Below, piece by piece: positions 1 to 13,790 of a DNA stretch of 13,790 bases. This stretch comes from Chlamydiia bacterium. Lineage in GTDB: Bacteria > Chlamydiota > Chlamydiia > Chlamydiales > Parachlamydiaceae. The notes under the pieces were generated by a model, which did not search any database, had not been told where the DNA came from, and saw only the letters and a program-made list of their open reading frames with translations. The position numbers and the translations under genes are program-made. Where the stretch lies: the NCBI GenBank assembly GCA_038257035.1, contig JBBSJT010000065.1:1-13790 (forward strand). The letters are read 5' to 3'. The first letter of the stretch is position 1. Each line of letters opens with the position of its first letter.

Positions 1-45
1 ATCTGATGAAGAATTGTTCAATGAGAAATTCTGAGAACATGTCAT
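1..45 (-). CDS. 5' fragment (15 codons, MTCSQNFSLNNSSSD...) of a multicopy ORF running off the window edge; possibly a transposase
   Basis: ATG at 45-43 on the minus strand, GGAGG 5 nt upstream (55-51), open to position 1; identical to 13746-13790. Confidence 0.45.
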   Translation of the reverse strand, partial: MTCSQNFSLNNSSSD

Positions 46-172
46 GATAGCCTCCTAAGTGATAAATTGCAAACTTATACTACTTAAGAGGTTATATGGG
101 AAATCAAATGTCAAGAAAAAGATGTGTCCGACTGTAAGGACGAGTCTCCGCACTCCAAATTAGCAAATTTTC
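1..172 (-). mobile_element. Left copy of a 172-bp repeat, inverted relative to the right window end; probable end of a multicopy IS-like element plus its conserved target flank
   Basis: The reverse complement of 13619-13790 matches 1-172 except at 140, 142 and 143; 1-139 is identical. It contains an RBS and ORF start reading out of the window. No transposase sequence is visible, so IS identity is inferred. Confidence 0.65.
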
Positions 173-278
173 AATTATCCAAAAAATTAATGAGATCTTA
201 ACGAAGCATTAATTTTAACTTTATGTTCTTTTTATATACTCGGGACATTAAACAGCAAAATAGATAGCAAGGAGCAAT

Positions 279-1424
279 ATGTCTTTTATTTCACGTGAAT
301 TATACCCAAACCTACCAAAATTTTACGATGACGAAGTCAGTGAAATTTTAACAAGACTTGACAATTCTTTAGATGCCAATTTTGGTAAATCGGAAGCCCC
401 AACAGTCAAAACTTACAAGTCACAAACTTATAGAGGCTATAATTATAGCCAAAGATATCAGCCTTCATTTTCAGAAAGTCTATTTTCAAATAGCATCTCG
501 CTTGGCAACACTTACAATTTCTGCTCGCCTACTATTACAACCATCAATGGCGGTGGTAACAATAGTAAGAAAAATGAAAAAAAATCAGAAGAAAAAAGCC
601 TTATTCCAATCATTCTAATTGTTAGCGTCTCTCTGGCAATTATTGGCGCATGCAGCTACTATGGAGGAAAGGCCTATGCCAAAGTGACAGATACAGGTGA
701 GGATCTTGCAGATCTTAAAAGTTTAGAGCCATTTATTGAAGGGACAGAAAAGCAAATCGAAAGCCTAAAATATGAACCCTTGTTTGCTAAAAAATTACCT
801 GAATTAAAGAAGCAAGTAGTTGTCATGAAAAATATCGTTAATAGCGGTAATATTTTTACTACAATAAAAAATAATTCAATACAGGATTTAAGATTAAGAA
901 TCGCTCTTGCTGCAGGTGCTGCTATTTTAGCGGTTGGTGCGGTAATGGCATTAAAGCCTGCTATGATTATTGGTGGCGGAATAATAGTGGTTAGCGTTAT
1001 TTGTATGCTTGTAAAAGCGGGGTCTCATTCTGATTCAAGAACACAGAATGCTAAAATTGCTAAAGTAAGACAAAACATTAGTGATATGCAAAATGTTATA
1101 AGCCAAGTAAGAACAGCTTTGGGAAATAAAATAACAGAGCCTGCTGAATTTAGAGTCGATGAGGATGCCGTCTATGAAATGAACAAACGAAATGCTCCGG
1201 AAAATTGCTCGGGACCTTCATGGGAAGAAGACTTGCCGGAAAACGCAACTGAATATGAGCGCAATTCTTTAAGAGATGAGTATTTAAAGCCTGTTTTTTT
1301 AGATGTTCAATATAATCAAGCATCACCGACGGTAATTTATTATCATCAAGAGGGACCATTTCAACCTCATTTTCAACCAACATATGGACAAACACAGTAC
1401 TATGGACAACACCAGTACGTATAA
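279..1424 (+). CDS. Inc-like (inclusion membrane-type) hypothetical membrane protein, candidate secreted effector
   Basis: 381 aa; AAGGAG RBS at 269-274. S/N/Y-rich N-terminus, one TM segment (LIPIILIVSVSLAIIGAC), a long bilobed hydrophobic hairpin (IALAAGAAILAVGAVMALKPAMIIGGGIIVVSVICMLV) flanked by coiled-coil-like segments, and a Q/Y/P-rich tail. Confidence 0.6.
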   Translation: MSFISRELYPNLPKFYDDEVSEILTRLDNSLDANFGKSEAPTVKTYKSQTYRGYNYSQRYQPSFSESLFSNSISLGNTYNFCSPTITTINGGGNNSKKNEKKSEEKSLIPIILIVSVSLAIIGACSYYGGKAYAKVTDTGEDLADLKSLEPFIEGTEKQIESLKYEPLFAKKLPELKKQVVVMKNIVNSGNIFTTIKNNSIQDLRLRIALAAGAAILAVGAVMALKPAMIIGGGIIVVSVICMLVKAGSHSDSRTQNAKIAKVRQNISDMQNVISQVRTALGNKITEPAEFRVDEDAVYEMNKRNAPENCSGPSWEEDLPENATEYERNSLRDEYLKPVFLDVQYNQASPTVIYYHQEGPFQPHFQPTYGQTQYYGQHQYV

Positions 1425-1449
1425 TTTTTAGGTAACCTACCTTACCTTG

Positions 1450-1495
1450 GCTTGTCGGATCATTCTCCATAGCGTGATTCGACAAGCTTTTTTTT
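1450..1495 (+). terminator. Intrinsic terminator between the convergent ORFs 279-1424 and 1497-2441
   Basis: Stem GCTTGTCGGATCA (1450-1462) / TGATTCGACAAGC (1475-1487) with one G-U pair, followed by T8. Confidence 0.75.
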
Positions 1496-1496
1496 C

Positions 1497-2441
1497 CTAG
1501 CCAATCTTAACGCTAGTATTAACGACGCCTGCAATTTTCTCCATTGTTTTAAAAATAATGCACCACCTTATGAATTGGGACAACTTACAAGAAGGAATAT
1601 TTTCAATCGTTTCATTTAAAATTTCGTTAGTGCTCCATACAATCAAAGATTTCTTTTTAAGGTGAACAAATTCTCTAATCATAGTGAAGCCATAATACTG
1701 TGTGTAGGTAATGGTTCCATCTTCAATTTTTAGACTTAAATTGAATGCATTTGGTTTTGAAGTGATTTTCCCCTCATGATCATAACAAAGTTCTGATGGA
1801 AGGGTATCTATTGATTTAATAAATGAAAGAGTTTTCACGTTTAGCTCATAAATATTCTGGATGCGTCTTCTTAGATGAAAATCGAGTACATGACCTGCAA
1901 TGCAGACTTCATAACTAAGCAGACAATCTATTTGGGAAACTCTAACAAATAACGTATCAAATTCGAGTATCTGCCTTGTATATGGATGTGCGTTAGATGT
2001 CCTTTCTGAAAAAGTTTTTTGAATTTTACATATCGTTTTATAGCAATATTCATAATGGGGATTAATTTCAGGGGAGTCAAAAATTACATCGAAGCTATTG
2101 CTGTGAATATCGGCATTATTTCCAAATTTAAGTTCCATTTCCATAAATTTTGAATCATCATTATTGACAATCGCATTAAATAATTTCCACTTCAAATCAG
2201 TTGTAAACTCACAATGAAAGGCTCCCCGGGCATGAAAGGGGAATATTGTTTCATTTTTGTTTTTAACAAATATTTCCGCATATAATTTGTTTTTGTGCAC
2301 TTGATGATCCATGGGACTGATTACATCGTACCAATCTTTGGAAATTTGTGGCGCAATCACTGCTCTTTCGTATAAGGGTAATCGTTCCTGAATAGCCCTT
2401 ATAACCTCGTACGGTAAAGAATTCATTATCAAACTGTTCAT
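1497..2441 (-). CDS. F-box-like domain protein with unrecognised C-terminal region
   Basis: 314 aa; N-terminal SLPYEVIRAIQERLPLYERAVIAPQISKDWYDVI fits the F-box pattern LPxE[IV]xxxIxxxL...VSKxW; purine-rich RBS upstream. Confidence 0.65.
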   Translation of the reverse strand: MNSLIMNSLPYEVIRAIQERLPLYERAVIAPQISKDWYDVISPMDHQVHKNKLYAEIFVKNKNETIFPFHARGAFHCEFTTDLKWKLFNAIVNNDDSKFMEMELKFGNNADIHSNSFDVIFDSPEINPHYEYCYKTICKIQKTFSERTSNAHPYTRQILEFDTLFVRVSQIDCLLSYEVCIAGHVLDFHLRRRIQNIYELNVKTLSFIKSIDTLPSELCYDHEGKITSKPNAFNLSLKIEDGTITYTQYYGFTMIREFVHLKKKSLIVWSTNEILNETIENIPSCKLSQFIRWCIIFKTMEKIAGVVNTSVKIG

Positions 2442-2564
2442 CCTTCATCCCTTTTTTATTTTTTAAAACAAATTGTACCCCTCCACCATTTTTTTAAAAA
2501 GCCTTAATTTGGAGTGCGAAGTTCGGCTTGTGTTAAGTTGTATTTCATATCATCCGTTGAACTA

Positions 2565-2590
2565 CATTTATTACCCCGGCAGGGGTAAAG
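2565..2590 (-). repeat. REP-like palindrome, same family as 3561-3580 and 3714-3737
   Basis: TTACCCC-GGCA-GGGGTAA at 2571-2588. The reverse complement CCCCTGCCGGGGTAATAAATG matches CCCCTACCGGGGTAATAAATG at ~3718-3738 with one mismatch. Confidence 0.7.
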
Positions 2591-2707
2591 AATTCTCTTT
2601 TATGTTAGGCTCGAAAAACCGGCATTTACTGTTGTTAATAAGAGGTTGTTATATAATATTTAACGTGCTAGTTTTAAAGCATTAATATTTAAAACTAAAG
2701 GGTTTAT

Positions 2708-3478
2708 ATGATTTCTCAAACATCTGCCACACCAACAGATATGGGCTATTTAGCCTGGCTTCCAAATGAACTTATAAATGAAGTGATCAACTATTTTCCT
2801 ATTTCTGACATGAATGCTCTTCATCAAACGGGAAAAAACCTAAACCCTGTTATAGCAACTGCGCTATTTTCTAAAACGCAAAAGGATCTGGAACAGCTTG
2901 AATGTAAACTGTTAGAAATCACGGATTTAAGAATTCACTCAAATTCTACCAATTATGACAATTACAAATTTTTTAAAAGTGAAACTGAAAAGTGGACAAA
3001 GAATGGCTCAAAAGAAAGATGTATAGCATTAAGAAATTGCGTTTGTCGAATTTTTTGGGACATGAATTTAAATGAGATATTTCGAATAATGGATTTACAC
3101 CCCTCGGAAGACCCATTATTACTTTCGCAAATCATTAAATCACATTCTACATTTGTTCAGTATATAAAGATTAACAAAACAAATGATATAAATTTGATTT
3201 TGTTTTTAAAAATGTTAGGGGGAAATCAATTACGTCGTGTAAAAGTATTAAATTTATGCATCGATCCTCTAGATGATACTATTGTAACCCTCTTTGCAAA
3301 TACAATACGAAAAAATAATTCTCTTACTGATTTGCATTTTGAGTACCCTCTTTCTTACCCTAAATATTTAAAAGAACCCATAGAATCAATTATGGAAAAT
3401 GAGAAAATTGTATGTGCCAAATTTAAGGCTATTGGGGAACAGGGATGGGACGTTATAAAAAATAAAAAGCAACAATAA
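2708..3478 (+). CDS. F-box-like protein with C-terminal RI-type LRR-like segment
   Basis: 256 aa; N-terminal LAWLPNELINEVINYFPISDMNALHQTGKNL is F-box-like. C-terminal VKVLNLCIDPLDDTIVTLFANTIRKNNSLTDLHF resembles ribonuclease-inhibitor-type LRRs. Confidence 0.6.
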   Translation: MISQTSATPTDMGYLAWLPNELINEVINYFPISDMNALHQTGKNLNPVIATALFSKTQKDLEQLECKLLEITDLRIHSNSTNYDNYKFFKSETEKWTKNGSKERCIALRNCVCRIFWDMNLNEIFRIMDLHPSEDPLLLSQIIKSHSTFVQYIKINKTNDINLILFLKMLGGNQLRRVKVLNLCIDPLDDTIVTLFANTIRKNNSLTDLHFEYPLSYPKYLKEPIESIMENEKIVCAKFKAIGEQGWDVIKNKKQQ

Positions 3479-3484
3479 AATGCC

Positions 3485-3764
3485 AAATTTAGGGCATTCA
3501 GCAAGGACTTTAGATTAGATACGTCATTTGTATTCTCCATCCGCCTCATATAACCTTTTTATTACCCCTACCGGGGTAATGAACATAGATTCAATGGTTA
3601 TATGAGGCAGATAAATACACAAATGAGGTATCCAATATCTAAAGGTCTTACTAAATACCCCGAGTTTCACTTCAGGCCTATCGGCCTTCCATTACACACG
3701 GGGCTGAAAGCTGTTGCCCCCTACCGGGGTAATAAATGGTTATATGACGCAGAAATACAGAGGT
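3485..3764. repeat. Composite palindromic repeat (REPIN/BIME- or MITE-like) between convergent genes
   Basis: Imperfect ~70-bp inverted arms 3485-3555 / 3596-3667 (perfect core GCCTCATATAACC / GGTTATATGAGGC) around the hairpin ATTACCCC-TACC-GGGGTAAT (3561-3580). Extra hairpin AGGCC-TATC-GGCCT (3674-3687). Second direct copy of CCCCTACCGGGGTAAT..AATGGTTATATGA[G/C]GCAGA at ~3718-3753. Confidence 0.8.
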
Positions 3765-3769
3765 TCTGT

Positions 3770-4330
3770 TTAATCTTGAATTTTTTTAAAATAATAATCG
3801 GAAATTACATTCCAAACATCATCAGGAAGGGTTTTACCTGTTTCTGAATTCATAACAATTTTAAAATTGTTTAAATAATTATATTCCGATGTGTTTTGTT
3901 TCACATCTTCACTAAAATCTAGAGAATGCGGATTTTTTAGTTTTCTATCTTTTAAGTATCTAGCAACCAAAGGATCTACAGCGAGCTTTCTATCATTTTT
4001 ATCACGAAGTCCCAGAAAAAATAAACTCGAAACTCCCATAAAAAATAACAAGCTCAGAACTATAGCCGCTTGAGGATATTCAACTGAAACTTTACGGATT
4101 CGTATTTCTTCAAAAGCCGTTTGTCCCTCTGCAAATATCATGAAAGCAAATGCGCTTGTTATCGAAGCAAATGCGATGGTTGCCAAAAAACCAGAATCAA
4201 TCAAAAAATCGTTGCGATTATTGATTTTCTTTTTTCTATCGATCGCATCAAATTCTTGGAATGTTCTGTTTAATTGCGTAATTTCTTGATCAATATTTAA
4301 GGGGAATTGAGTGTTTGGATTGATTGACAT
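3770..4330 (-). CDS. Two-TM hypothetical protein (Inc-like) with C-terminal F-box-like motif
   Basis: 186 aa; N-terminus MSINPNTQFP; two hydrophobic segments (GFLATIAFASITSAFAFMIFA; AAIVLSLLFFMGVSSLFFLGL); ends TLPDDVWNVISDYYFKKIQD. Confidence 0.6.
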   Translation of the reverse strand: MSINPNTQFPLNIDQEITQLNRTFQEFDAIDRKKKINNRNDFLIDSGFLATIAFASITSAFAFMIFAEGQTAFEEIRIRKVSVEYPQAAIVLSLLFFMGVSSLFFLGLRDKNDRKLAVDPLVARYLKDRKLKNPHSLDFSEDVKQNTSEYNYLNNFKIVMNSETGKTLPDDVWNVISDYYFKKIQD

Positions 4331-4372
4331 TAGATTTGTTTTTAAAGATTTAACAAGGGGTTTTACCCCGTT

Positions 4373-4402
4373 GAAAACAAGCGCAGGTTTTAACCTGCGC
4401 TT
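4373..4402 (-). terminator. Intrinsic terminator after the ferredoxin-HesB operon
   Basis: Perfect inverted repeat AAGCGCAGGTT-TT-AACCTGCGCTT (4379-4402), 6 nt past the stop at 4409, followed by GTTTTC on the minus strand; a second weaker hairpin GGGG-TTTTA-CCCC at 4357-4369. Confidence 0.75.
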
Positions 4403-4408
4403 TGGAAA

Positions 4409-4978
4409 TTAATAACCGTGGGAAGTACCGCAGCCGCATGAAGAGCGAACGTTTGGATTGCTGATTTTGAATCCTGAACCTTGTAGGCCATCGATAAAAT
4501 CAATTTCTGCACCAACAAGACGTTGAACCATATCTTTTTGAATATGAACTTCTATTCCGCAAGATGAGAATGTTACATCATCTTCATTAGCTTTTTCAGA
4601 ATAATCAAGAAGATATTCAAAACCATTGCATCCTGCCATTTTTTCTGCAAAACGAATGCCATATCCGAGCTTACCTTCATCTTCAAGAATCTGTAAGTAT
4701 TTTGCAGCAGCTCTTGGAGTGATTGTAATTGTAGATGCATCAACTTTTTCAGCTAATAAAGCGTTAAGACGTCCTTCAAGACGGTCGATTGCTTCAACAG
4801 TCATTCCATGGCCAAGCATTCCGGCTTCTAGTGTTTCCCATGTTGCCGCGTGGCATCCAACGCAATGAAGGCCTGCACTTGTGATCTCATGAGCTAAGCG
4901 TTGAGCTTTATGAGGAAATAGCGATAAAATTTCTTCGATCGTCATATGACGATGGATCGTTTGATTTGATGTTGACAT
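4409..4978 (-). CDS. Fe-S cluster assembly accessory protein (HesB/IscA A-type carrier) with N-terminal DUF1858-like domain
   Basis: C-terminal ITITPRAA...GCNGFEY...IDFIDGLQGSGFKISNPNVRSSCGCGTS is the IscA/HesB signature. N-terminal MTIEEIL...GLHCVGC..ATWETLEAG..GHG is the DUF1858-type pattern. Confidence 0.9.
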   Translation of the reverse strand: MSTSNQTIHRHMTIEEILSLFPHKAQRLAHEITSAGLHCVGCHAATWETLEAGMLGHGMTVEAIDRLEGRLNALLAEKVDASTITITPRAAAKYLQILEDEGKLGYGIRFAEKMAGCNGFEYLLDYSEKANEDDVTFSSCGIEVHIQKDMVQRLVGAEIDFIDGLQGSGFKISNPNVRSSCGCGTSHGY

Positions 4979-4990
4979 GATACTATCCTT

Positions 4991-5257
4991 TTAAAATAAA
5001 ATTCTTACGCAACCTGATTTAATTTTGCACTGACAAGCAAGTCTTTCGTCCGCGGTTCCTGCGCCAAGAAAATCTTCTTCTTCTTGAGTTGGTGCCGAAA
5101 GATTTTCATGTCCTTCTTTAATTTCAATAACACATGTTCCACAAACACCTTCAGTGCATGCAAAAGGAACGCCAGCTTCTTCACAAGCTTCAGTTAGTGG
5201 TGAGTCATCCGGTAAATCGATTTCTTCATTATTATGATCAAAAATTAACTTTGCCAT
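4991..5257 (-). CDS. [2Fe-2S] ferredoxin
   Basis: 88 aa, acidic; GVPFACTEGVCGTC (C-x4-C-x2-C) plus RLACQC. Confidence 0.93.
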   Translation of the reverse strand: MAKLIFDHNNEEIDLPDDSPLTEACEEAGVPFACTEGVCGTCVIEIKEGHENLSAPTQEEEDFLGAGTADERLACQCKIKSGCVRILF

Positions 5258-5325
5258 TTTTACTTTATTTCTCCAACTTAAAAATTTCTTAAGGTTTGCG
5301 GTCTAATCGTTTAAATATAAAGCAA

Positions 5326-5354
5326 ATTATAAAGTAAAAGTATAAAAAATGCAA
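5326..5354 (-). promoter_or_regulatory. Sigma70/sigma66-type promoter for ferredoxin-HesB
   Basis: Minus strand TTGCAT (5354-5349), 17-nt spacer, TATAAT (5331-5326), between the lgt stop and the ferredoxin start. Confidence 0.65.
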
Positions 5355-5362
5355 TAGTCTAT

Positions 5363-6247
5363 TTAAACTTTGCGAAATAACTTATTTTTACAGTTGCAGT
5401 TTCCGAAGAAAAGTAAAAGAATTCCAAGAACGATGCAAGGAATACTCAAAAGTTGACCTGTTTGAAGCCATGATTCATCCATCATTAAACTCGATGGAAG
5501 TTTGTAGATTTCGATGAAAAACCTGGATCCAAAAATTAAAATAAAGAATAGGCCGCTTATGATTCCACGTCTGACCATGCCCTTTTTAAGGCTCCAAAGA
5601 CTATATAATATAAAAAATGTTATAAGTGCAGTGATGGCTTCATAAAGTTGAACAGGGTGACGAGGTACGATTGCGCTACCATCTGCGGGATCTCCAAAAA
5701 TCACAGCCCATGGAAGGTTTGTTGCTGTTCCAAGAATTTCTTGATTGATGAAATTGCCAATACGAATGCAAAAGGCAGCAAAAGCTGTAGGGATAGCAAG
5801 CATATCGATAAGATCAATGTAAGAAATTTCTTTAAAATTTTTGAGTACAATTTTTTTGTAGAAGAATAAAGCTAAAAGAATGCCAATTGTTCCGCCGTGA
5901 CTTGCAAGACCGCCTTCCCAGATTTTAAAGATATCAAGGGGGTTTTGGCTATAACGTGGCCATTCGTAAAAAAAGACATGACCCAAACGCGCACCAATAA
6001 TCGTTCCGCCAATGACAAACCAAATCATCCGATCGCTAAGAGTTGTGGCCAAATCTTTTGTTTCAAGTTTGTTGTTTAATTTAAGGCGAATTGTCATGAG
6101 TTGACGAAAGATCAAGTAGCCAATAACAAAACCAAAGGCAAAGCAAATGCCATACCAGCGCACAGGATGGTTGATGAAGGGGACTGTAAAGGCATCGCGA
6201 TTAGGATTCCAATAAATCCAATTTAAAAAAAGAGTATGCATCATCAT
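5363..6247 (-). CDS. lgt: Prolipoprotein diacylglyceryl transferase
   Basis: Motifs RWYG, IIGARLGHV, IWEGGLASHGG, RIGNFINQE, RHPVQLYE, RFFIE; multi-TM. The exact start among the three tandem ATGs is uncertain. Confidence 0.97.
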   Translation of the reverse strand: MMMHTLFLNWIYWNPNRDAFTVPFINHPVRWYGICFAFGFVIGYLIFRQLMTIRLKLNNKLETKDLATTLSDRMIWFVIGGTIIGARLGHVFFYEWPRYSQNPLDIFKIWEGGLASHGGTIGILLALFFYKKIVLKNFKEISYIDLIDMLAIPTAFAAFCIRIGNFINQEILGTATNLPWAVIFGDPADGSAIVPRHPVQLYEAITALITFFILYSLWSLKKGMVRRGIISGLFFILIFGSRFFIEIYKLPSSLMMDESWLQTGQLLSIPCIVLGILLLFFGNCNCKNKLFRKV

Positions 6248-6258
6248 TTTATTTTGCC

Positions 6259-6289
6259 AAAAAAAAACTCCTGCAATTGCAGGAGTTTT
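6259..6289 (-). terminator. Intrinsic terminator downstream of tRNA-Pro
   Basis: Perfect palindrome AAAACTCCTGCAATTGCAGGAGTTTT (6264-6289) with a T9 tract on the minus strand (A run 6259-6267). Confidence 0.85.
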
Positions 6290-6294
6290 AGTTA

Positions 6295-6369
6295 TCGGAG
6301 TAGAGGGATTCGAACCCCCGACCTACTGCTCCCAAAGCAGCCGCGCTAGCCAAGCTGCGCTATACTCCG
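6295..6369 (-). tRNA. tRNA-Pro (anticodon UGG), CCA not encoded
   Basis: Minus strand CGGAGTATAGCGCAGCTTGGCTAGCGCGGCTGCTTTGGGAGCAGTAGGTCGGGGGTTCGAATCCCTCTACTCCGA: acceptor CGGAGTA/TACTCCG, anticodon loop TTTGGGA, T-loop GGTTCGAATCC. Confidence 0.97.
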
Positions 6370-6391
6370 AACGCGATCATTAAAGAACGGT

Positions 6392-6420
6392 ACTATAGCA
6401 ATTTCGCATATCCATTTCAA
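6392..6420 (-). promoter_or_regulatory. Sigma70/sigma66-type promoter for tRNA-Pro
   Basis: Minus strand TTGAAA (6420-6415), 17-nt spacer, TATAGT (6397-6392) with extended -10 TG; 22 nt upstream of the tRNA. Confidence 0.75.
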
Positions 6421-6530
6421 GTGTTTTTATCACATATTTCAGAAACCCTTTTACAGCAACACTTTAAGACCTTCTTTTTTTTTATTCCTCACGGGCAGTT
6501 GCCGTTTTATTTCAACCGCTAAGGAGGCTC

Positions 6531-6740
6531 TTTTTACCGCGAAGAGCGCGAAGAAGCGCAGCTTTGCTGCGGGAAGAAACGCGAAGCGCGCTAAAGCGCG
6601 AGAAAGACTAAGTAAGATAAATTACATAAAATTTTTGAATGCAAAGTGCTATTAATTTCGCTGATCGCGCTTTTTAGCGCGCTTCTTCGCGTTTCTTCCC
6701 GCAGCAAAGCTGCGCTTCTTCGCGCTCTTCGCGGTAAAAA
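6531..6740. repeat. GC-rich long inverted repeat (MITE/REPIN-like) between menG and the tRNA promoter
   Basis: 6531-6586 is the exact reverse complement of 6685-6740 (56 bp), extending with small indels to 6601/6665; AT-rich ~63-nt spacer. Arms are built of CGCGAAG units and contain an inner CGCAGC-TTT-GCTGCG hairpin. Confidence 0.9.
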
Positions 6741-6794
6741 AAATGCTAACAAACGGTAGACTCTTTGTGGTGAAAAAAAACGTAGGGCGTTCTA

Positions 6795-7526
6795 TTACTT
6801 GATGTTGAGGGGTTTTTTGCCGTAGATGATGGTTGCAATGCCGCCGGCAAGTTTTTTTTGACTGGTTTGAGTAAAGCCCGATTCTTTTAATAGCGCTTCA
6901 ATATCTGCAGGCTTAACAAACGCATGGATACTGTTGCATAGGTATTCGTAAGCTTGTTTATTGGAGCCAAATATACGTCCCATGATTGGAAGGACCATTT
7001 TAAGATACGCTTTGTGGCCGAGCTGTAAAAAGCGATTTGTTGGGCGAGTAAGTTCCAGGATGCCAAAAGTGCCGCCCGGTTTTAAAACTCTAAACACTTC
7101 ATCGATGCAATTTTTTGGTTCTTTGATGTTTCTTATACCATAAGCAACAGTTGCTGATTGGACCGTTTCAGCATTTAGCGGAATCAATTCAGCATTTGCT
7201 TGAATATATGAAATTTGATGGTTGTTAAAAGTTGACTTCAAAGCTTTTTGACGAGCACATTCAAGCATCTCTTCGCAAAAGTCAAGCATGTAAATTTTTT
7301 TAGGCAGTTTAGACTTTTTCAAATAAGTAAAAGCAATTTCCCCGGTTCCACAACATAGGTCAAGCAAGCTTTCAGGGTTATGGGCGTCAGTCACCTGATG
7401 TATGAGCTGACTATTCCAATAACGGTGCATTTGAAAAGATAGAATCGCATTGGTTCTATCATACTTTTTTGCAATGCTGCCGAACATGTTTTGAATCGAT
7501 TCAGGGTCATCTTTTCTGTAAGTCAA
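6795..7526 (-). CDS. ubiE: UbiE/MenG demethylmenaquinone C-methyltransferase
   Basis: MFGSIAKKYDRTNAILSFQMHRYW, SAM motif LLDLCCGTGEI, YGIRN, EVFRVLKPGG..ILE, AYEYL..SI; TTG start. Confidence 0.93.
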   Translation of the reverse strand: MTYRKDDPESIQNMFGSIAKKYDRTNAILSFQMHRYWNSQLIHQVTDAHNPESLLDLCCGTGEIAFTYLKKSKLPKKIYMLDFCEEMLECARQKALKSTFNNHQISYIQANAELIPLNAETVQSATVAYGIRNIKEPKNCIDEVFRVLKPGGTFGILELTRPTNRFLQLGHKAYLKMVLPIMGRIFGSNKQAYEYLCNSIHAFVKPADIEALLKESGFTQTSQKKLAGGIATIIYGKKPLNIK

Positions 7527-7540
7527 TGTTGTGCCTTTGG

Positions 7541-7777
7541 TTACATCTTTGGGTCTGTATCCGATTTATCTTCTTCGCAATCTGATTTATCTTTTTCACA
7601 AAGACCACACGATGTTTTATCACCGCATGAATCATCTTTGTTTTTATTCGGTAGTCTTCCACAAGCTCCTGGTTTGATCTTTGACTTACCCGTAATAAGC
7701 CAGCCAACCCCAAGCAGTGCCAAGGCAATAGCAATCAATACAAAAGCTATAGTTAATGTAAGAATTAAATTATCCAT
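7541..7777 (-). CDS. Small single-TM Cys-rich protein, NqrM (DUF539)-like
   Basis: Likely start at ATG 7777, overlapping the upstream stop. N-terminal TM helix then KSKIKPGACGR...C..TSCGLC...C; resembles the NqrM layout TM + IKGSCGG + Cys cluster. Confidence 0.55.
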   Translation of the reverse strand: MDNLILTLTIAFVLIAIALALLGVGWLITGKSKIKPGACGRLPNKNKDDSCGDKTSCGLCEKDKSDCEEDKSDTDPKM

Positions 7778-9797
7778 GAGTTTCATCATCCTCTAATTCT
7801 GTAAAATCATCGTCTTCATCATCTTCATCAAAATCATCTTCAAAATCATCACCAAGAAAATCATTTTTGCTGATTGGTTTTAGAACCGCAGGTTTTTTAT
7901 CAGGTTTTTTGAGAACAAGAGGAATATAATCGACCCAGATAGGTGAACTCCATGCCATATGTCCATCTGCTTGTGTAACACGTAAATAGTAATAAGCAAA
8001 GGGAGGTTTTTTGTCTTTAGCATCAATAACAGCTTTATCAAGCGGAGAAAGATCGTCAAAAGTGAAATTCATGTTATATTCGTGACACTCAAAAGTTTTG
8101 ATGACCTTGCCGTTTCGAATAATCTCAACTTGTTTTAGAGCGGCAGTTCCTGCTACATATCCTGACAAATGGCGATTGACAATAAGCCCTTGTTTAGTTG
8201 CAGTACTGGTTTCTGAACCCATAGGAAGTCCTGCTAAATATAGACCCACAATAATCCGCTCACCGGTTGTTGCGTAGCATGAGCGATTATATAAAGCCTC
8301 GATCATAGAGGAACGTGAATGCTCTGCTGAAATAATACCTGTCATTCCCGGAGAATATTGAACTTGGTCGCCTTCAAAGAAATCAGAATAAATACCACGG
8401 TCATCAAGACCACCGGCAACAAACCCAAAACGGCAATTGCGTAGCAGTGCTTTTTGAATAGAGCCCTCTTGAGCTTCCCCAATTCCATTTTTATTGCCAC
8501 CCGTAATCGGTCTTGTGTTCCCTTCTTTTTTGGTGCATTCAGATGATCCCCAAGCATTGTAAATTTCTACAACTCGTTCAAAATCAGGCTCATAAGCTTT
8601 AAAGTCAAAATCAAACCCTTTACCCATAGTAAATGTCGGAATTGAGATTATCTCTTTTGGTGTAAATGACTTATAGATTTTTGAAAGGCTGCTATATTTT
8701 GGATCTTTTCTACGAAGAAGAGTTTTATTGTCTTTTGCGTAAATAAATTGTCTGGTTCCTTCTTTTGTGGCCTCGCCAGGATACTGAAATCCAACCAATG
8801 TAGTGAAGCGATCAGCTTCATCAAATTCCGCTAAATTTTGCGTGATTAACTTCCAAATTTCATTGGGGGTTTCTTCTTGAGATTCAAAAGATGAAGAGGA
8901 GTAAAAATTCAATGCACGTTCATCACGGAAGTGGCGCAAGCAGCTTTCAATGTTTTCTGTAGAATCAATTCTTTCAGATTCGCCGTGAAGCAAGCCCCAA
9001 AAAAGATGTTTTGTATTATCCGCAAAGCATTTTACAGGAGGGGATTTGAATACTTTTTTTGTAAATAAATTTTCCAGGCAAATGGTATAAATGCCGGCTT
9101 CATTAAAATAGAGATTTGGTAACGATATAAATCCTGTTTCCGGAACAAATAATTTCCATTTAAGGTTTTCTCTTAAATTTTCATATGATAATTCAATTAA
9201 GGTATCTTCGTGGGCTTCATTTGTTAAATTACCATATTGATCTTCAAAACGGACGATCACATCAAAGCGCTTATTTCTTGCAACAAAGGAGGGGGTTAAA
9301 ACGCGAATATTGCTTAATTCTGCACCTTTGACATCCATAAAAAAGACTTCAGGCTCATCGTAGCGTCCTTTTCCGGTAGCATCAATGTAAAGATGAAACA
9401 AGCGTCTTCGTTGCGTATTTGTTTGAGTTCTTGTTCCGTTAGTTCTAAAGCTGCTTTTTTCTTCTTTTGGCGATCCAACAACAACTGTAAAATTGCTTCC
9501 TAAAGGAAGCTCAACCGGAGTTATAAATTCAAAAGAGGGATTTACTGCATTTGGCGTTTCAATTTCTTTAGCTTGTAAAACTTTACCATTATCGAGTTTG
9601 GCAAATATAACGTTTTTTGTTTTTTTGAGATTACTTGTTGGAAATTCCCAGTCCAAATCACGACCGTTGCTCATCAGGTCGAACTTCATTTTTGTACCTT
9701 TTGGCAAGGCTACAGAAGTAGTGTAAATAAACATCCAAGTGTTTGTTTCACCGGCGATGGCTTGACTTGGTTCGCAGTAGCATATTGATCTTCGCAT
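7770..9797 (-). CDS. DUF3604-family / PHP-like conserved chlamydial protein with acidic tail
   Basis: 675 aa; FEDQYGN, LFWGLLHGES, VVEIYNAWGSSE, FGFVAGGLD, EALYNRSCYATTGERI, YYYLRVTQADGHMAWSSPIWV are typical DUF3604 blocks (recalled pattern, not searched); D/E-rich C-terminus. Confidence 0.8.
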   Translation of the reverse strand: MRRSICYCEPSQAIAGETNTWMFIYTTSVALPKGTKMKFDLMSNGRDLDWEFPTSNLKKTKNVIFAKLDNGKVLQAKEIETPNAVNPSFEFITPVELPLGSNFTVVVGSPKEEKSSFRTNGTRTQTNTQRRRLFHLYIDATGKGRYDEPEVFFMDVKGAELSNIRVLTPSFVARNKRFDVIVRFEDQYGNLTNEAHEDTLIELSYENLRENLKWKLFVPETGFISLPNLYFNEAGIYTICLENLFTKKVFKSPPVKCFADNTKHLFWGLLHGESERIDSTENIESCLRHFRDERALNFYSSSSFESQEETPNEIWKLITQNLAEFDEADRFTTLVGFQYPGEATKEGTRQFIYAKDNKTLLRRKDPKYSSLSKIYKSFTPKEIISIPTFTMGKGFDFDFKAYEPDFERVVEIYNAWGSSECTKKEGNTRPITGGNKNGIGEAQEGSIQKALLRNCRFGFVAGGLDDRGIYSDFFEGDQVQYSPGMTGIISAEHSRSSMIEALYNRSCYATTGERIIVGLYLAGLPMGSETSTATKQGLIVNRHLSGYVAGTAALKQVEIIRNGKVIKTFECHEYNMNFTFDDLSPLDKAVIDAKDKKPPFAYYYLRVTQADGHMAWSSPIWVDYIPLVLKKPDKKPAVLKPISKNDFLGDDFEDDFDEDDEDDDFTELEDDETHG

Positions 9798-9974
9798 GGT
9801 AGTTACCTTATTTTTACAGAACGAGTTTTTTCATTTTGCATAACGACCTATTCTTTTTCAAGTTAAATTGTTTCTTTGACATCATATTTATTTCTCCCAA
9901 AAAAAAATTACCATCTAAGTCTAGATTTTTAAACCGCGAAACAGTGCTGATACTTAAGAAAAAAAAACTGTTAT

Positions 9975-11153
9975 TTATGTTGTTGTTTGGTCGACAGGTT
10001 GGTCTTCAATGGTCCAACCACCAATTTCACCATCAGCCCCCAATGCAAAAAAATGGGTAAAATCGAAGACCTGTGGTCGTTTCTCTTTAAATTTAATATC
10101 ATATATTACACCATTATTATTAGCTGTCGATTCAAGATACCATTTTTGTTCAAAGTATCTCCATACGGCAATGTGACCTGTATTATCTGTAGAATAGAAA
10201 AAAGGTGATAGAGGGTTTGCAAGCAGTGAAGTTATTGTAAAATTATGATAATTAAGGGTTTGAACACATTCATAAAGTTTTTTTAGATTGTTAGACCAGA
10301 TTTTAATGGTTTTATCGATAGATCCGCTAATTAAACAATTCGTTCTTTTTTGCATTTTTAATACGGTAATTGCCGATTGATGACATTTAAGGGTTTGACT
10401 TAAAAAAGACTCACCATTGTTTATCATTTCCCAAATGCGAATCGTGCCGTCTCTTGATCCTGAACAAATTTGATGGGAAAAGGGATTTTCTTTATTAATT
10501 TTTAAGCAAGTGATTGCCTCATCATCTGCTTTTAATTCTGTAATAAATTTTAATGAATAGATTTGATTAAATTCTAATTTCCAAACTTTAATAGAGCCGT
10601 CCTCACAACCTGTGAAAAGCCTGTCTTTAATAAGCTCCATGCAAGAAATACCTCTTGAATGGATTTTCTTCTCAAATAAACAATCCTCATCAACGTTATT
10701 ATTCCATATTTTAACATAACCGTCCGACGCACATGTAATAATGTAAATCGGGTCTAAGAAGCCATGAATAATTATTTGATTAATAGAACCTGTGTGAGTA
10801 CTTTTTTTTAAAATGGGGAACGTATTATCAGGTTTAAATAAATAAAGTATATTATTTTTTGCACAATGAAATCCGGCACTTGATTGGTTCAAAGAATTAT
10901 AAAATGAACCCTTAAAGTTTGAATAAAAATGTTGTTTCCAACTAATTTCAGGCAATTTTACATAATCAGGCCAGCATTTCATTGCATAGCGTTTCCAAAT
11001 TATGTCATAGTTGCTATGTTCTTGCCATAATTTACACACTCTTCCTATCGTAATCCAATCCTTATGAGTTAAAACTGATGAGATTTCAAAAAAGATATCT
11101 TTCGGTAAATAGGCATCAAGGTTATTCTGTCTCAAGATGATATTGCTATTCAT
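9975..11153 (-). CDS. F-box + WD40 repeat protein (eukaryote-like effector candidate)
   Basis: YLPKDIFFEISSVL...IGRVCKLWQEHSNYDIIWK is an F-box. About six WD40 repeats (SDGYVKIWN, EDGSIKVWK, SRDGTIRIWE, SIDKTIKIWS, NTGHIAVWR, ADGEIGGWT). ATG 11153 with upstream AGAGGG is preferred over GTG 11204, which would overlap the ATPase. Confidence 0.88.
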   Translation of the reverse strand: MNSNIILRQNNLDAYLPKDIFFEISSVLTHKDWITIGRVCKLWQEHSNYDIIWKRYAMKCWPDYVKLPEISWKQHFYSNFKGSFYNSLNQSSAGFHCAKNNILYLFKPDNTFPILKKSTHTGSINQIIIHGFLDPIYIITCASDGYVKIWNNNVDEDCLFEKKIHSRGISCMELIKDRLFTGCEDGSIKVWKLEFNQIYSLKFITELKADDEAITCLKINKENPFSHQICSGSRDGTIRIWEMINNGESFLSQTLKCHQSAITVLKMQKRTNCLISGSIDKTIKIWSNNLKKLYECVQTLNYHNFTITSLLANPLSPFFYSTDNTGHIAVWRYFEQKWYLESTANNNGVIYDIKFKEKRPQVFDFTHFFALGADGEIGGWTIEDQPVDQTTT

Positions 11154-11192
11154 AATGGAATTGCCCTCTGTAGTCACATATATAGGATACGA

Positions 11193-13580
11193 ATGGTTTT
11201 GCACCAGACTAAAAAAAATTGCACTTTATGCAGCTCTGTAATATTTAAAAATCTGATTGTTGAGGAAGAAAATTCTTTTTGCTGTCATGGTTGTCATGCT
11301 GTCTGGCAAATTCTTAAAGCAAAAAATCATTTAGATCAATTCGAAAAACATCCTATTTACGTTCAAGCAGTTAAGTCGGGACTCATAACAAATCCCGATC
11401 TTCTTGAACAAATTGAATCCAAATTTTGTAAAGCAGGGGATTCTGAAGAAAAATTCCATCTTGAAATTGGCAATATGTGGTGTCCATCTTGTGCTGAAGT
11501 CATCAACCTAATTTTGCTGCGTGAAAAAGGTGTGATCAGTTGTTTTATCGATTATACAACCGATTTTGGCATTATCGAATTTTCAAAACTTTTAATTTCA
11601 AAAGATAGAATTATAAAAATTATTGAAAATATCGGTTACAGACCGGTTTTACTCGAAGATTCAGAAAATAAACCCTTAGGTCTAGCCCTTAACTTAAAAT
11701 TTATCGTGGCAGCATTTTGTTCTTTAAACATCATGATGTTTTCCTACCCGCTTTATGCCTCCTATTTTGATTATGATCCCTTGGAGTATGGAAAACTTTT
11801 TGCAATTCTCTCATTTTTCATGTCCATCCCAATTGTTACTTATTGTTTTTGGCCGATTTTAAAGAAGTTTTATAGCGCCATTCTATATGGCATTTATGGA
11901 ATGGAAACGCTTGTTGTTTTTGGTGTCGCCTCTTCATTTATGTTATCAATCTACGAACTCATTACAGATGGCACTAAAGTTTATTTTGATTCAATGGCTG
12001 TTATCATCACATTTATGTTGCTTGGTAAAATATTAGAATCAAAAGCAAAATTTTCAGCAAAAAATTCACTTTTACGTCTGCATGCATCAGTACCAAGACG
12101 CGTCAGAAAATGTTTTGAAGATGGAAAGCTGGAATTTGTTCCGATTAAGGAAATTAAAAAAAATGATCTTTTTGCGCTATTCCAAGGAGAAAAGGTAGCG
12201 CTTGATGGCATTGTGGAATCAGGGAGCGGCTATTTAGATGAATCACTAATGACAGGTGAGTCTAATCCTGTTTTAAAAGAAAAGAATTCTAAGGTAGTTG
12301 GGGGTTCTATTTTACAAAATGGCAGGTTAACCATACGAGCCGTATCGACAGATCAGGAATCTGCCCTAAAACGCATTATTGATTTAGTTGAAGCGGGATT
12401 AAAATCCAAACCAAAATCTCGGCAATTGGTGGATATAATTGTTGCTTGGTTTGTGCCTCTTGTTTTATGCATTGCCACACTAACCGCTGTTTATTTCTTT
12501 TTACAAGGAGATACCGAAACAGCCTTCATTAATGCTTTATCGGTAATTTTAATTTCCTGCCCTTGTGCAATCGGCATTGCGGCGCCTCTTGCAGAATCCT
12601 ATTTGATGAATGCACTTGGAACCTCTAATGCTATTGTTAGGAATCGGGCGGTTTTACCATTTTTAGGCAAAGAAACGGTTTTTGTTTTCGATAAAACAGG
12701 CACCATTACTACAGGTAATTTTAGAATCATTAAAGGCTTTGAAAAATTAACGACTCATGAATGTGCCCTATTAAAATCGATGACAAGCCAATCTCAACAT
12801 CTAATTTCTTTGAGTATTGCAAAATGCATTCAAGAAACAGCCTTTGCTTTAGAAAAATTGGAAGAAATTCCAGGACGCGGCTTGAGGGCTGTTTTTGGTT
12901 CGGATATTTATCATCTAGGATCTTTCGAATTTCTAAAGCTTGAAGGTGTGAGTTTTGAAGAGATGGAAGAAGATAACACTTCAAACGATCATAATATTGT
13001 TTCTTCCAAAGTTTATTTTGCTAAGAACTATAAGCTAAAAACAATTTTTCACTTAGGTGACACGATCCGTGAAGGTGTAAAAGAGCTTATAGCATCATTA
13101 AAGCCGCTTAAGACAATTCTTTTATCAGGAGATGCAACAAATGCAGTTTCTTTGGTAGCAGATGCTATTAAATTTGATGCCTATCATGCCGGCTTTACCC
13201 CTTTAAGAAAAAAAGAATTTATAACTTCCTTAAAAGCCGAAGGCCATATTGTTTGTATGGTGGGAGATGGTATCAATGATGCGCCGGCACTTACCGAGGC
13301 ACAGATCGGCATTTCGGTTGTTACGGCAACAGACATTTCTATTCAAGTCTCTGATATTTTGCTAACGACGAACGATTTACGCACATTGCTAAAGATAAAA
13401 AACCTAGGGTCTTTTGGACATTCCATTTTAAAGCAAAACTTATTTTGGGCCTTCTTCTATAATATTGTGGGTCTTGCGCTGGCCGTTTTTGGTTTGCTAT
13501 CTCCGATCTTTGCAACCTTTGCCATGATGATAAGCAGTCTAATAGTCCTCTACAACGCCAAGCGCATTACCAGAACTTAA
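11193..13580 (+). CDS. Heavy-metal (probably Cu+) P1B-type ATPase, FixI/CcoI-like
   Basis: N-terminal CTLC...FCCHGC domain, HMA GNMWCPSC, TGES, SCPCAIG, DKTGT, LLSGD, GDGINDAPAL, YN and MMISS Cu-type TM motifs. Confidence 0.92.
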   Translation: MVLHQTKKNCTLCSSVIFKNLIVEEENSFCCHGCHAVWQILKAKNHLDQFEKHPIYVQAVKSGLITNPDLLEQIESKFCKAGDSEEKFHLEIGNMWCPSCAEVINLILLREKGVISCFIDYTTDFGIIEFSKLLISKDRIIKIIENIGYRPVLLEDSENKPLGLALNLKFIVAAFCSLNIMMFSYPLYASYFDYDPLEYGKLFAILSFFMSIPIVTYCFWPILKKFYSAILYGIYGMETLVVFGVASSFMLSIYELITDGTKVYFDSMAVIITFMLLGKILESKAKFSAKNSLLRLHASVPRRVRKCFEDGKLEFVPIKEIKKNDLFALFQGEKVALDGIVESGSGYLDESLMTGESNPVLKEKNSKVVGGSILQNGRLTIRAVSTDQESALKRIIDLVEAGLKSKPKSRQLVDIIVAWFVPLVLCIATLTAVYFFLQGDTETAFINALSVILISCPCAIGIAAPLAESYLMNALGTSNAIVRNRAVLPFLGKETVFVFDKTGTITTGNFRIIKGFEKLTTHECALLKSMTSQSQHLISLSIAKCIQETAFALEKLEEIPGRGLRAVFGSDIYHLGSFEFLKLEGVSFEEMEEDNTSNDHNIVSSKVYFAKNYKLKTIFHLGDTIREGVKELIASLKPLKTILLSGDATNAVSLVADAIKFDAYHAGFTPLRKKEFITSLKAEGHIVCMVGDGINDAPALTEAQIGISVVTATDISIQVSDILLTTNDLRTLLKIKNLGSFGHSILKQNLFWAFFYNIVGLALAVFGLLSPIFATFAMMISSLIVLYNAKRITRT

Positions 13581-13618
13581 TATAAGTCCTTAATTGGAGA
13601 TTCGCTTATTAGAGTTTC

Positions 13619-13790
13619 GAAAATTTGCTAATTTGGAGTGCGGAGACCTGGCCTTACAGTCGGACACATCTTTTTCTTGACATTTGATTTCCCATATAAC
13701 CTCTTAAGTAGTATAAGTTTGCAATTTATCACTTAGGAGGCTATCATGACATGTTCTCAGAATTTCTCATTGAACAATTCTTCATCAGAT
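13619..13790 (+). mobile_element. Right copy of the 172-bp repeat; probable IS-like element end plus conserved target flank
   Basis: Reverse complement of 1-172 with 3 mismatches, all within 13648-13651; starts 38 nt after the ATPase stop. Confidence 0.65.
13746..13790 (+). CDS. 5' fragment (MTCSQNFSLNNSSSD...) of multicopy ORF, truncated by the window end; possibly a transposase
   Basis: GGAGG at 13736-13740, ATG at 13746, open to the end; identical to 45-1. Confidence 0.45.
   Translation, partial: MTCSQNFSLNNSSSD

Follow-up and report, generated by a model that had tools for sequence, protein, structure and literature searches.

The window analysed here is a stretch of 13,790 nucleotides which makes up the complete contig C65 of a 2.37-Mb assembly with 210 contigs (G000). 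Most of it is occupied by chromosomal genes, which were identified with Pfam and Rfam and encode an Fe-S assembly protein, Lgt, a tRNA, UbiE, an F-box/WD40 protein and a P-type ATPase. At each end of the window, these genes are followed by part of a REP palindrome and then by the truncated end of an IS. The features, with positions in the window, are:

1..138, minus strand: left end of IS copy 1, truncated by the contig end and identical to 13653-13790. It contains the terminal inverted repeat (TIR; 29 bp, 138-110, minus strand), the 5' leader and the first 15 transposase codons, with the ATG at 45-43 (minus strand).
139..146, minus strand: predicted target-site duplication of 8 bp, GACTCGTC, in the centre of REP hairpin 1.
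147..173, minus strand: REP head and 5' arm of hairpin 1, GAAAATTTGCTAATTTGGAGT + GCGGA. The head motif recurs in the intact REP units of the genome.
279..13580: ordinary chromosomal genes between the IS copies.
6295-6369, minus strand: tRNA (Rfam).
13619-13639, plus strand: REP head, GAAAATTTGCTAATTTGGAGT.
13640-13644, plus strand: 5' arm of hairpin 1, GCGGA.
13645..13652, plus strand: predicted target-site duplication of 8 bp, GACCTGGC, which includes the 4-nt block 13648-13651.
13653..13681, plus strand: terminal inverted repeat of 29 bp, CTTACAGTCGGACACATCTTTTTCTTGAC.
13653..13790, plus strand: left end of IS copy 2, truncated by the contig end, with the transposase ATG at 13746.

Some other features of the window can be mentioned here. 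The F-box and WD40-repeat protein, encoded at 9978-11204 on the minus strand, has a eukaryote-like domain combination. Positions 6531-6740 are occupied by a palindromic element of 210 bp, whose arms of 56 nt are perfectly complementary (TTTTTACCGCGAAGAGCGCG...). With up to 6 mismatches allowed, the arm has 38 copies in the genome, often arranged in inverted pairs at a distance of 200-280 bp, and the element represents a second MITE-like family, unrelated to the IS. A third small hairpin repeat, TTATTACCCCGGCAGGGGTAA, was found at 2567-2592, 3558-3583 and 3718-3738 and has 11 genomic matches when up to 4 mismatches are allowed. At 2505-2530 the window contains a degenerate REP head, TTAATTTGGAGTGCGAAGTTCGGC, that lacks the usual palindrome.

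Positions 1-185 and 13606-13790 form a 185-nt inverted repeat, which is 95% complementary. Read in the same orientation, both window ends run from GAAAATTTGCTAATTTGGAGTGCGGAGAC through CTGG (13648-13651) or TCGT (143-140) into CCTTACAGTCGGACAC, and then to the end of the contig. From 13619 to 13790 the two copies differ at just three bases, all of which are within the 4-nt block. The arrangement described in an earlier note on this DNA, a flank followed by a variable 4-nt block and an invariant element end, was therefore confirmed. As a 139-nt stretch is identical at both window ends, a chance resemblance can be excluded.

A 16-nt core of the IS end is present in G000 in seven exact copies and one single-base variant (C81). 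Every one of these copies is located 117-265 nt from a contig end, indicating that the assembly breaks inside the IS repeat. The first 29 nt are common to all end copies, which then diverge into two classes. The left ends (n = 3; C65 twice and C30) carry a ribosome-binding site and an ATG, from which MTCSQNFSLNNSSSD (MTCSQNF...) is read. The right ends (n = 5; C1, C54, C68, C84 and C81) carry, on the opposite strand, the C-terminus of an ORF, which reads ...GIQTVWRGIVRLVDMIYGYELTHKMILGLRNNS or ...PPGIQTVWRGIVRLVDMIYGYELTHKMILGLRNNS before the stop codon. The two classes correspond to the opposite ends, left and right, of a single element whose terminal inverted repeats are perfect over 29 bp and start with CTTACAG. 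The repeat CTTACAGTCGGACACATCTTTTTCTTGAC is identical at the three left ends and at three of the five right ends, with one substitution each in C54 and C81. The eight ends represent at least five independent insertions in G000. The far end of the element, which the earlier note had suggested should be recovered, was thus found as the right-end class with the transposase C-terminus, and the missing 3' arm and the duplication were found on partner contigs and in intact relatives.

The earlier note was right about the insertion and one base off in its boundary: the element begins at CTTACAG (position 13653, and 138 on the minus strand), and the C before it belongs to the target. The start was placed at CTTACAG because the preceding base varies among the relatives, being C versus G (L006/L012). 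A start at CCTTACAG, with a duplication of 4 bp or 6 bp, was also considered and was rejected because of the relatives L006/L012 and the direct repeats of L053 and L054.

The interior of the IS is absent from the G000 assembly, as no matches to the transposase P0002 were obtained at E <= 1e-40. P0002 (470 aa) was found by a database search with a 60-aa C-terminal stretch from C81, to which it is 100% identical over the query, and its N-terminus is identical to the 15 residues MTCSQNFSLNNSSSD of the window. It is encoded on a 1548-bp contig outside G000, and it is the basis both for the single ORF and for the inferred IS length of approximately 1556 bp, made up of a 93-nt leader, a 1413-nt ORF and 50 nt after the stop. 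The ORF start, the ORF end and the 29-bp TIRs can be seen in G000 itself, and the intact relatives L053 and L054 have the structure TIR-ORF-TIR.

The sequence of P0002 assigns the transposase to the IS4 family, as a DDE enzyme like that of Tn5/IS50. Three Pfam domains were detected above their gathering scores, Tnp_DNA_bind, DDE_Tnp_1 and Dimer_Tnp_Tn5 (PF14706, PF01609 and PF02281), and the NCBIfam IS4 model NF033590 gave 335.8 bits (cut-off 160). P0002 also matched the Tn5 transposase structures (E 8e-26), with D94, D191 and E335 placed at the DTT, DRE and IEEF positions of the Tn5 transposase. These residues are invariant in 13 relatives, as are those of the YREK motif (Y328, R331, E335 and K342), which is defined as Y(2)R(3)E(6)K in PMC2266710. 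The closer relatives P0003-P0015 have overall identities of 62-67%, except for one at 51%. The IS ends read 5'-CT, which fits the IS10/IS50 subgroups under the 5'-NT ends rule given in the same paper (PMC2266710). The duplications of 8 or 9 bp observed in relatives (see below) are within the range of roughly 8-12 bp for the family.

Between the options that the earlier note had left for the ORF, DDE or IS110, the classification therefore fell on IS4, with a Tn5-like DDE enzyme. The IS110 family deserved attention, as it contains the best known REP-targeting ISs (IS621 and ISPpu9/10; PMC1525189), and an element of this type could find the REP by means of a bridge RNA. The probability of this is negligible, because the IS has a Tn5-like DDE transposase in place of a DEDD recombinase, 29-bp terminal inverted repeats where IS110 elements have none, and an 8-bp duplication. 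Moreover, the leader has only 93 nt, and no Rfam family was matched at its gathering score. Along with IS110 and its bridge RNA, IS200/IS605 and IS1380 had been considered from the geometry of the flanks, and all of these were ruled out by the identity of the transposase.

The target of the IS is a genuine repeat of the REP/REPIN-RAYT type. The 15-nt flank motif ATTTGGAGTGCGGAG has 57 matches in the genome at up to 2 mismatches, of which 5 adjoin the IS, approximately 4 are unrelated and the rest are uninterrupted; the flank, which the earlier note would have assigned to the element had it never occurred alone, is thus mostly found without it. The uninterrupted palindromes that the note had proposed to look for are also present, since a stricter parse identified 66 intact REP units of the form TGGAGT-GCGGN-[8-9 nt]-NCCGC in G000. 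Their 5-nt arms are GCTGT in 29, GCGGT in 22, GCGGA in 12 and other sequences in 3. Hairpin 1 is usually followed by hairpin 2, with AAATCG or GCCCG and the same centre. There are 20 REPIN-like inverted pairs of REP units, spaced 106-208 bp, and six single long palindromes. For one REP pair, a folding energy of -80.7 kcal/mol (z -17.9) was obtained for the single-stranded DNA.

A RAYT gene is located on C68 (C68:12090-12620, minus strand; L140:1291-1821) and scored 85.8 bits against NF047646 (cut-off 80). On one side of the gene there is an intact REP (C68:11997) and on the other, at the end of C68, the REP that is interrupted by the IS. Of the 73 genomes of the same family, 19 contain RAYT genes that exceed the cut-off, and among the 14 RAYT loci examined in other genera, 6 are flanked by palindromes headed by TGGAGTGCG. 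The described REP classes carry GTAG or CGTC tags, according to PMC3733652. No such tetranucleotide was found next to the REP stem, where the conserved head is TGGAGT. Rfam gave no match at gathering score on the REPs, only sub-threshold matches to miRNA-like hairpins.

Several observations on the repeats and their surroundings were made in passing. In 37 of the 48 parsed REP units, hairpin 1 and hairpin 2 have identical centres (e.g. L141:100-300, which is C12:11899-12099), whereas shuffling of the pairings gave on average 15.5 and at most 25 identical pairs (2000 shuffles). The identity spans at least three centre types (CCTG, CTCTG and CTTG) and may in part result from subfamily descent. 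The IS copy at the right end of the window probably sits in the REP beside the RAYT gene of C68. G000 also contains further IS200-like Y1 transposase genes of approximately 150 aa (PF01797), which are distinct from RAYT, at C29:9017-9475, C119:252-719, C105:2259-2717 and C48:13864-14313, with broken copies on C7 and C25; the gene on C48 has a REP-like palindrome alongside. In G001 and G002, which belong to the same genus as G000, neither the IS end nor the REP head gave a match at E <= 0.001, although G002 has a RAYT above the cut-off. Even within the genus, the REP family may vary.

All eight IS ends occupy the same REP position, on either strand of the palindrome. Between the start of the palindrome arm (GCGGA or GCTGT) and the IS there are 13 nt, made up of the 5-nt arm and 8 nt of the centre; at C84, with a centre of 9 nt, there are 14 nt. 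For five of the ends the REP is read from its head, and for the other three from its tail. The insertion point is the dyad axis of REP hairpin 1, GCGGA-[8 bp]-TCCGC. The suggestion in the earlier note that a REP-like palindrome of the host had been hit at a fixed distance therefore holds for every end in the genome.

The two sides of an insertion could be matched across contigs. The left end of the window, with GACTCGTC, pairs with C1, where the reverse complement GACGAGTC and the REP tail abut the IS right end. The right end, with GACCTGGC, pairs in the same way with C68, where its reverse complement GCCAGGTC and the REP tail abut the IS right end, and C30 pairs with C81 through a shared 8-mer, GCCAGGGC. 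Each of these three flank pairs in G000 consists of one REP-head side and one REP-tail side and rebuilds a full REP. From the matching flanks of the three contig-end pairs we infer both the contig joins and an 8-bp duplication. The earlier note had considered the 4-nt block as a possible target duplication, which was correct as to the duplication and too short as to its length, the block being the middle of the 8 bp. With all copies at the same point and the REP rebuildable around them, the IS has the properties of a REP-targeting IS of type 1 in the sense of Tobes and Pareja. A search for the empty site and for synteny in genomes of the same genus gave approximately 65% DNA identity for the ATPase region, and nothing matched the sequence on the C68 side; these genomes provided no empty site because they are too diverged.

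As two inversely oriented Tn5-like IS copies bracket the contig, which is the architecture of Tn5, it could be supposed that a composite transposon (IS, 13.4 kb, IS) moved as a unit, with the window as its cargo. This is most improbable, as each copy has its own duplication partner (GACTCGTC with C1, GACCTGGC with C68), the outer flanks of the copies share no duplication and the cargo consists of housekeeping genes. The lack of a common duplication in the outer flanks shows that the block 279..13580 was not moved as a composite and that the two copies are independent insertions.

Selection, in place of targeting, could also have produced a set of copies in REPs, if insertion were untargeted and only those copies in harmless REPs survived; the REPs are extragenic and presumably neutral, and the genome is compact. 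This explanation is very unlikely, since selection does not account for a nucleotide-exact placement of 8/8 ends on either strand, nor for the avoidance of hairpin 2 and other intergenic DNA, which would be equally harmless.

Relatives of the IS with 53-63% protein identity were found in other chlamydial genera at the same REP position. Two of them are intact and come from metagenomes: L053 (63% protein identity) is flanked by the 8-bp direct repeat GACGAGTC and L054 (53% protein identity) by the 8-bp direct repeat GGCTTGCC. In both, removal of the IS and one repeat copy leaves a complete REP of the GGAGTGCG type. Non-autonomous, MITE-like derivatives show the same pattern, with repeats of 8 bp in L159 and 9 bp in L150. 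Five other genomes contain 34 distinct end-like sequences. A strict pattern for the REP half-site was matched by 20 of these, and in a further 8 the half-site was evident on inspection; 3 were ambiguous, and the remaining 3, all in G030, have no REP half-site. A scan of genome contigs for the exact pattern identified only two loci, neither with an intact ORF, and the loci around the end-like matches in G040 and G007 hold only MITE-like remnants.

In G030, which belongs to a different chlamydial family, L006 (G030:C175) and L012 (G030:C12) are in a non-REP site, with a 9-bp duplication, CGCTCTTGC, inferred across the two contigs. REP targeting is therefore not universal in the IS lineage.

A different pattern was seen in some short or defective derivatives, L003/L147 (G040:C6), L004/L170 (G015:C161) and L038 (G051:C72), in which the element has a REP head on either side. 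Read toward the element, the two centres are the same, and they do not form a direct duplication. Imperfect duplications were observed at L168 and L172. Head-to-head flanks could possibly arise by recombination between inversely oriented IS copies, by analogy with ISRm22, for which this was proposed in 3 of 9 copies (PMC1525189). Another possibility is mismatch correction in snap-back hairpins formed by the short derivatives.

The loci with two REP heads could suggest that the REP-like flank is part of the mobile element, since the inverted repeats formed by their flanks are identical as far as the IS end, central bases included. The true terminal repeat would then have approximately 60 bp (REP head, 4 nt and CTTACAG...), and the uninterrupted palindromes would be deletion derivatives. 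We consider this highly improbable for several reasons. The 66 intact REP units contain no IS sequence, and the central bases vary from copy to copy next to identical IS ends. At L053, L054, L150 and L159 there is a head on one side and a tail on the other, with a direct duplication that restores the REP. REPs of this type also flank RAYT genes in 6/14 loci of other genera, and head-to-head flanks are to be expected from recombination of inverse copies, as in ISRm22 (PMC1525189).

Given that the IS targets the REP, what is recognised in it can be addressed by the distribution of the insertions. The duplicated 8-mers are common in the genome, with 47 copies of GACCTGGC, 30 of GACTCGTC and 31 of GCCCTGGC, of which hairpin 1 accounts for only 11, 4 and 7, respectively. 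Many copies of these 8-mers are in hairpin 2, yet none of the eight ends is found there. Four of the five insertions are in the GCGGA-armed class, which accounts for only 12 of the 66 intact units (binomial p 0.005-0.011). For these reasons (the common 8-mers, the untouched hairpin 2 and the preference for the GCGGA arm), a sequence readout that reaches into the REP arms is favoured. The 18 REP units with a centre of exactly AACTCTGTT contain no insertion, which is not significant with five events. With G and C at its two ends, the duplication agrees with the target preference of Tn5, which favours palindromic targets with G/C pairs at the duplication ends (as summarised in PMC1525189).

Alternatively, the transposase or a host factor could capture the structure of the REP, as a hairpin, a cruciform or through its bendability, so that the IS could use any stable palindrome with such a geometry as its target. 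As single strands the REPs form very stable folds, and the arm sequences vary among hosts (GCGGA, GCGGT, GCTGT, GCGAA, GCGCT and GCGGC) with the insertion always on the dyad axis, both of which would fit recognition of structure. This variation could equally reflect co-divergence of each IS with the REP of its host. Hairpin 2, with the same 8-nt centre and a comparable stem, was hit by 0/8 ends, and within G000 the insertions concentrate in a minority arm class; the empty AACTCTGTT units point the same way without reaching significance. Recognition by structure is therefore rather unlikely, and a readout of the sequence of the arms is preferred.

Taken together, the window is very probably the contig between two independent, inverted copies of a REP-targeting IS of the IS4 family that is similar to Tn5/IS50. 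Direct support for this comes from the family, the ends, the positions of the copies, the intact REPs and the duplication in two intact relatives. The IS would have approximately 1556 bp, 29-bp TIRs and a single 470-aa DDE transposase, and would insert at the dyad axis of REP hairpin 1, in a target of the form TGGAGT-GCGGA-[G.C..G.C]-TCCGC. By homology to Tn5/Tn10, a transposase dimer in the synaptic complex would read a target with two-fold symmetry, namely the G/C at both ends of the duplication and the flanking arms, and the two 3'-OH ends of the transposon would attack opposite strands. The resulting staggered cuts, 8 bp apart and symmetric about the axis, would duplicate the 8-bp centre and leave the 5' arm and REP head on one side and the 3' arm and REP tail on the other. 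The target specificity would be set by the transposase itself. For the IS, a palindromic REP could be of benefit as a symmetric, gene-free site (safe haven).

REP-targeting ISs have been described in five families, IS3, IS110, IS4, IS256 and IS5 (Tobes and Pareja; PMC1525189), so the insertion described here is not a new principle. The earlier note named such targeting in the IS3 and IS110 families; an IS4-family case is also known (ISRm22; PMC1525189). The present IS is a further example, and probably the first to be noted in chlamydiae. In the literature that was searched, no description was found of REPs in amoeba-associated chlamydiae or of a REP-specific IS in environmental chlamydiae, and the PVC superphylum (Planctomycetes, Verrucomicrobia, Chlamydiales) is only mentioned among RAYT/REPIN papers.

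The findings document a REP/REPIN-RAYT system together with a REP-specific IS in environmental chlamydiae. In practice, the IS explains the assembly break points of this and similar chlamydial MAGs and predicts contig joins. A Tn5-like transposase with near single-site specificity, a habit kept at 53-63% identity, also represents a natural system for target reading by Tn5-type enzymes. It could tentatively be proposed that a lineage of Tn5-like ISs has tracked the REPIN-RAYT system across several amoeba-associated chlamydial genera, always at the same hairpin axis and with drifting arms, and that its target represents a REP class that has not been described, in which a TGGAGT head is combined with two hairpins of identical centre. 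If this is true, it would point either to a Tn5-type transposase that reads structure or to long co-evolution of the transposase with its safe-haven target.

When compared with known systems, IS231A is similar as an IS4-family element with a symmetric site in the repeat of another element, as it has a strong preference for a symmetric site inside the terminal repeat of Tn4430. It differs in that its target is a transposon end in Bacillus and not a REP, and its duplications are approximately 10-12 bp. Tn5 duplicates 9 bp and has only a weak target consensus, whereas the specificity of the present IS extends into the flanking arms and is confined to a single site class. The IS50/Tn5 transposase (PDB 1MUH, 3ECP) is otherwise the same in its domain set, its DDE and YREK residues and the 5'-CT ends of the element.

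IS1397 and ISKpn1 are of another family (IS3), have two frameshifted ORFs and generate 3-4-bp duplications. They share insertion into the palindromic unit of REPs with the present IS, and experiments suggest that their specificity is determined by the transposase (PMC1525189). IS621, ISPpu9, ISPpu10 and ISPa11 of the IS110 family also insert at a fixed position in REPs (PMC1525189). They differ in having DEDD recombinases and 0-2-bp repeats. ISs of the IS110 family have no terminal inverted repeats, and their target choice is RNA-guided.

Within its own family, the present IS can be compared with ISRm22 from Sinorhizobium meliloti (IS4 family, subgroup IS4Sa), which has 9/9 copies in REPs, at the palindrome axis and with a 6-bp repeat (PMC1525189; PMC2266710). 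Both are IS4-family elements with all copies in the REPs of the host, on the axis and with a short direct repeat, and some copies of ISRm22 likewise have imperfect repeats, which were attributed to recombination (PMC1525189). The two differ in subgroup, in host (S. meliloti versus a chlamydia) and in the length of the repeat, as the chlamydial IS has 8 bp (9 bp in some relatives) in place of 6 bp, together with 5'-CT ends and Tn5-type N- and C-terminal domains.
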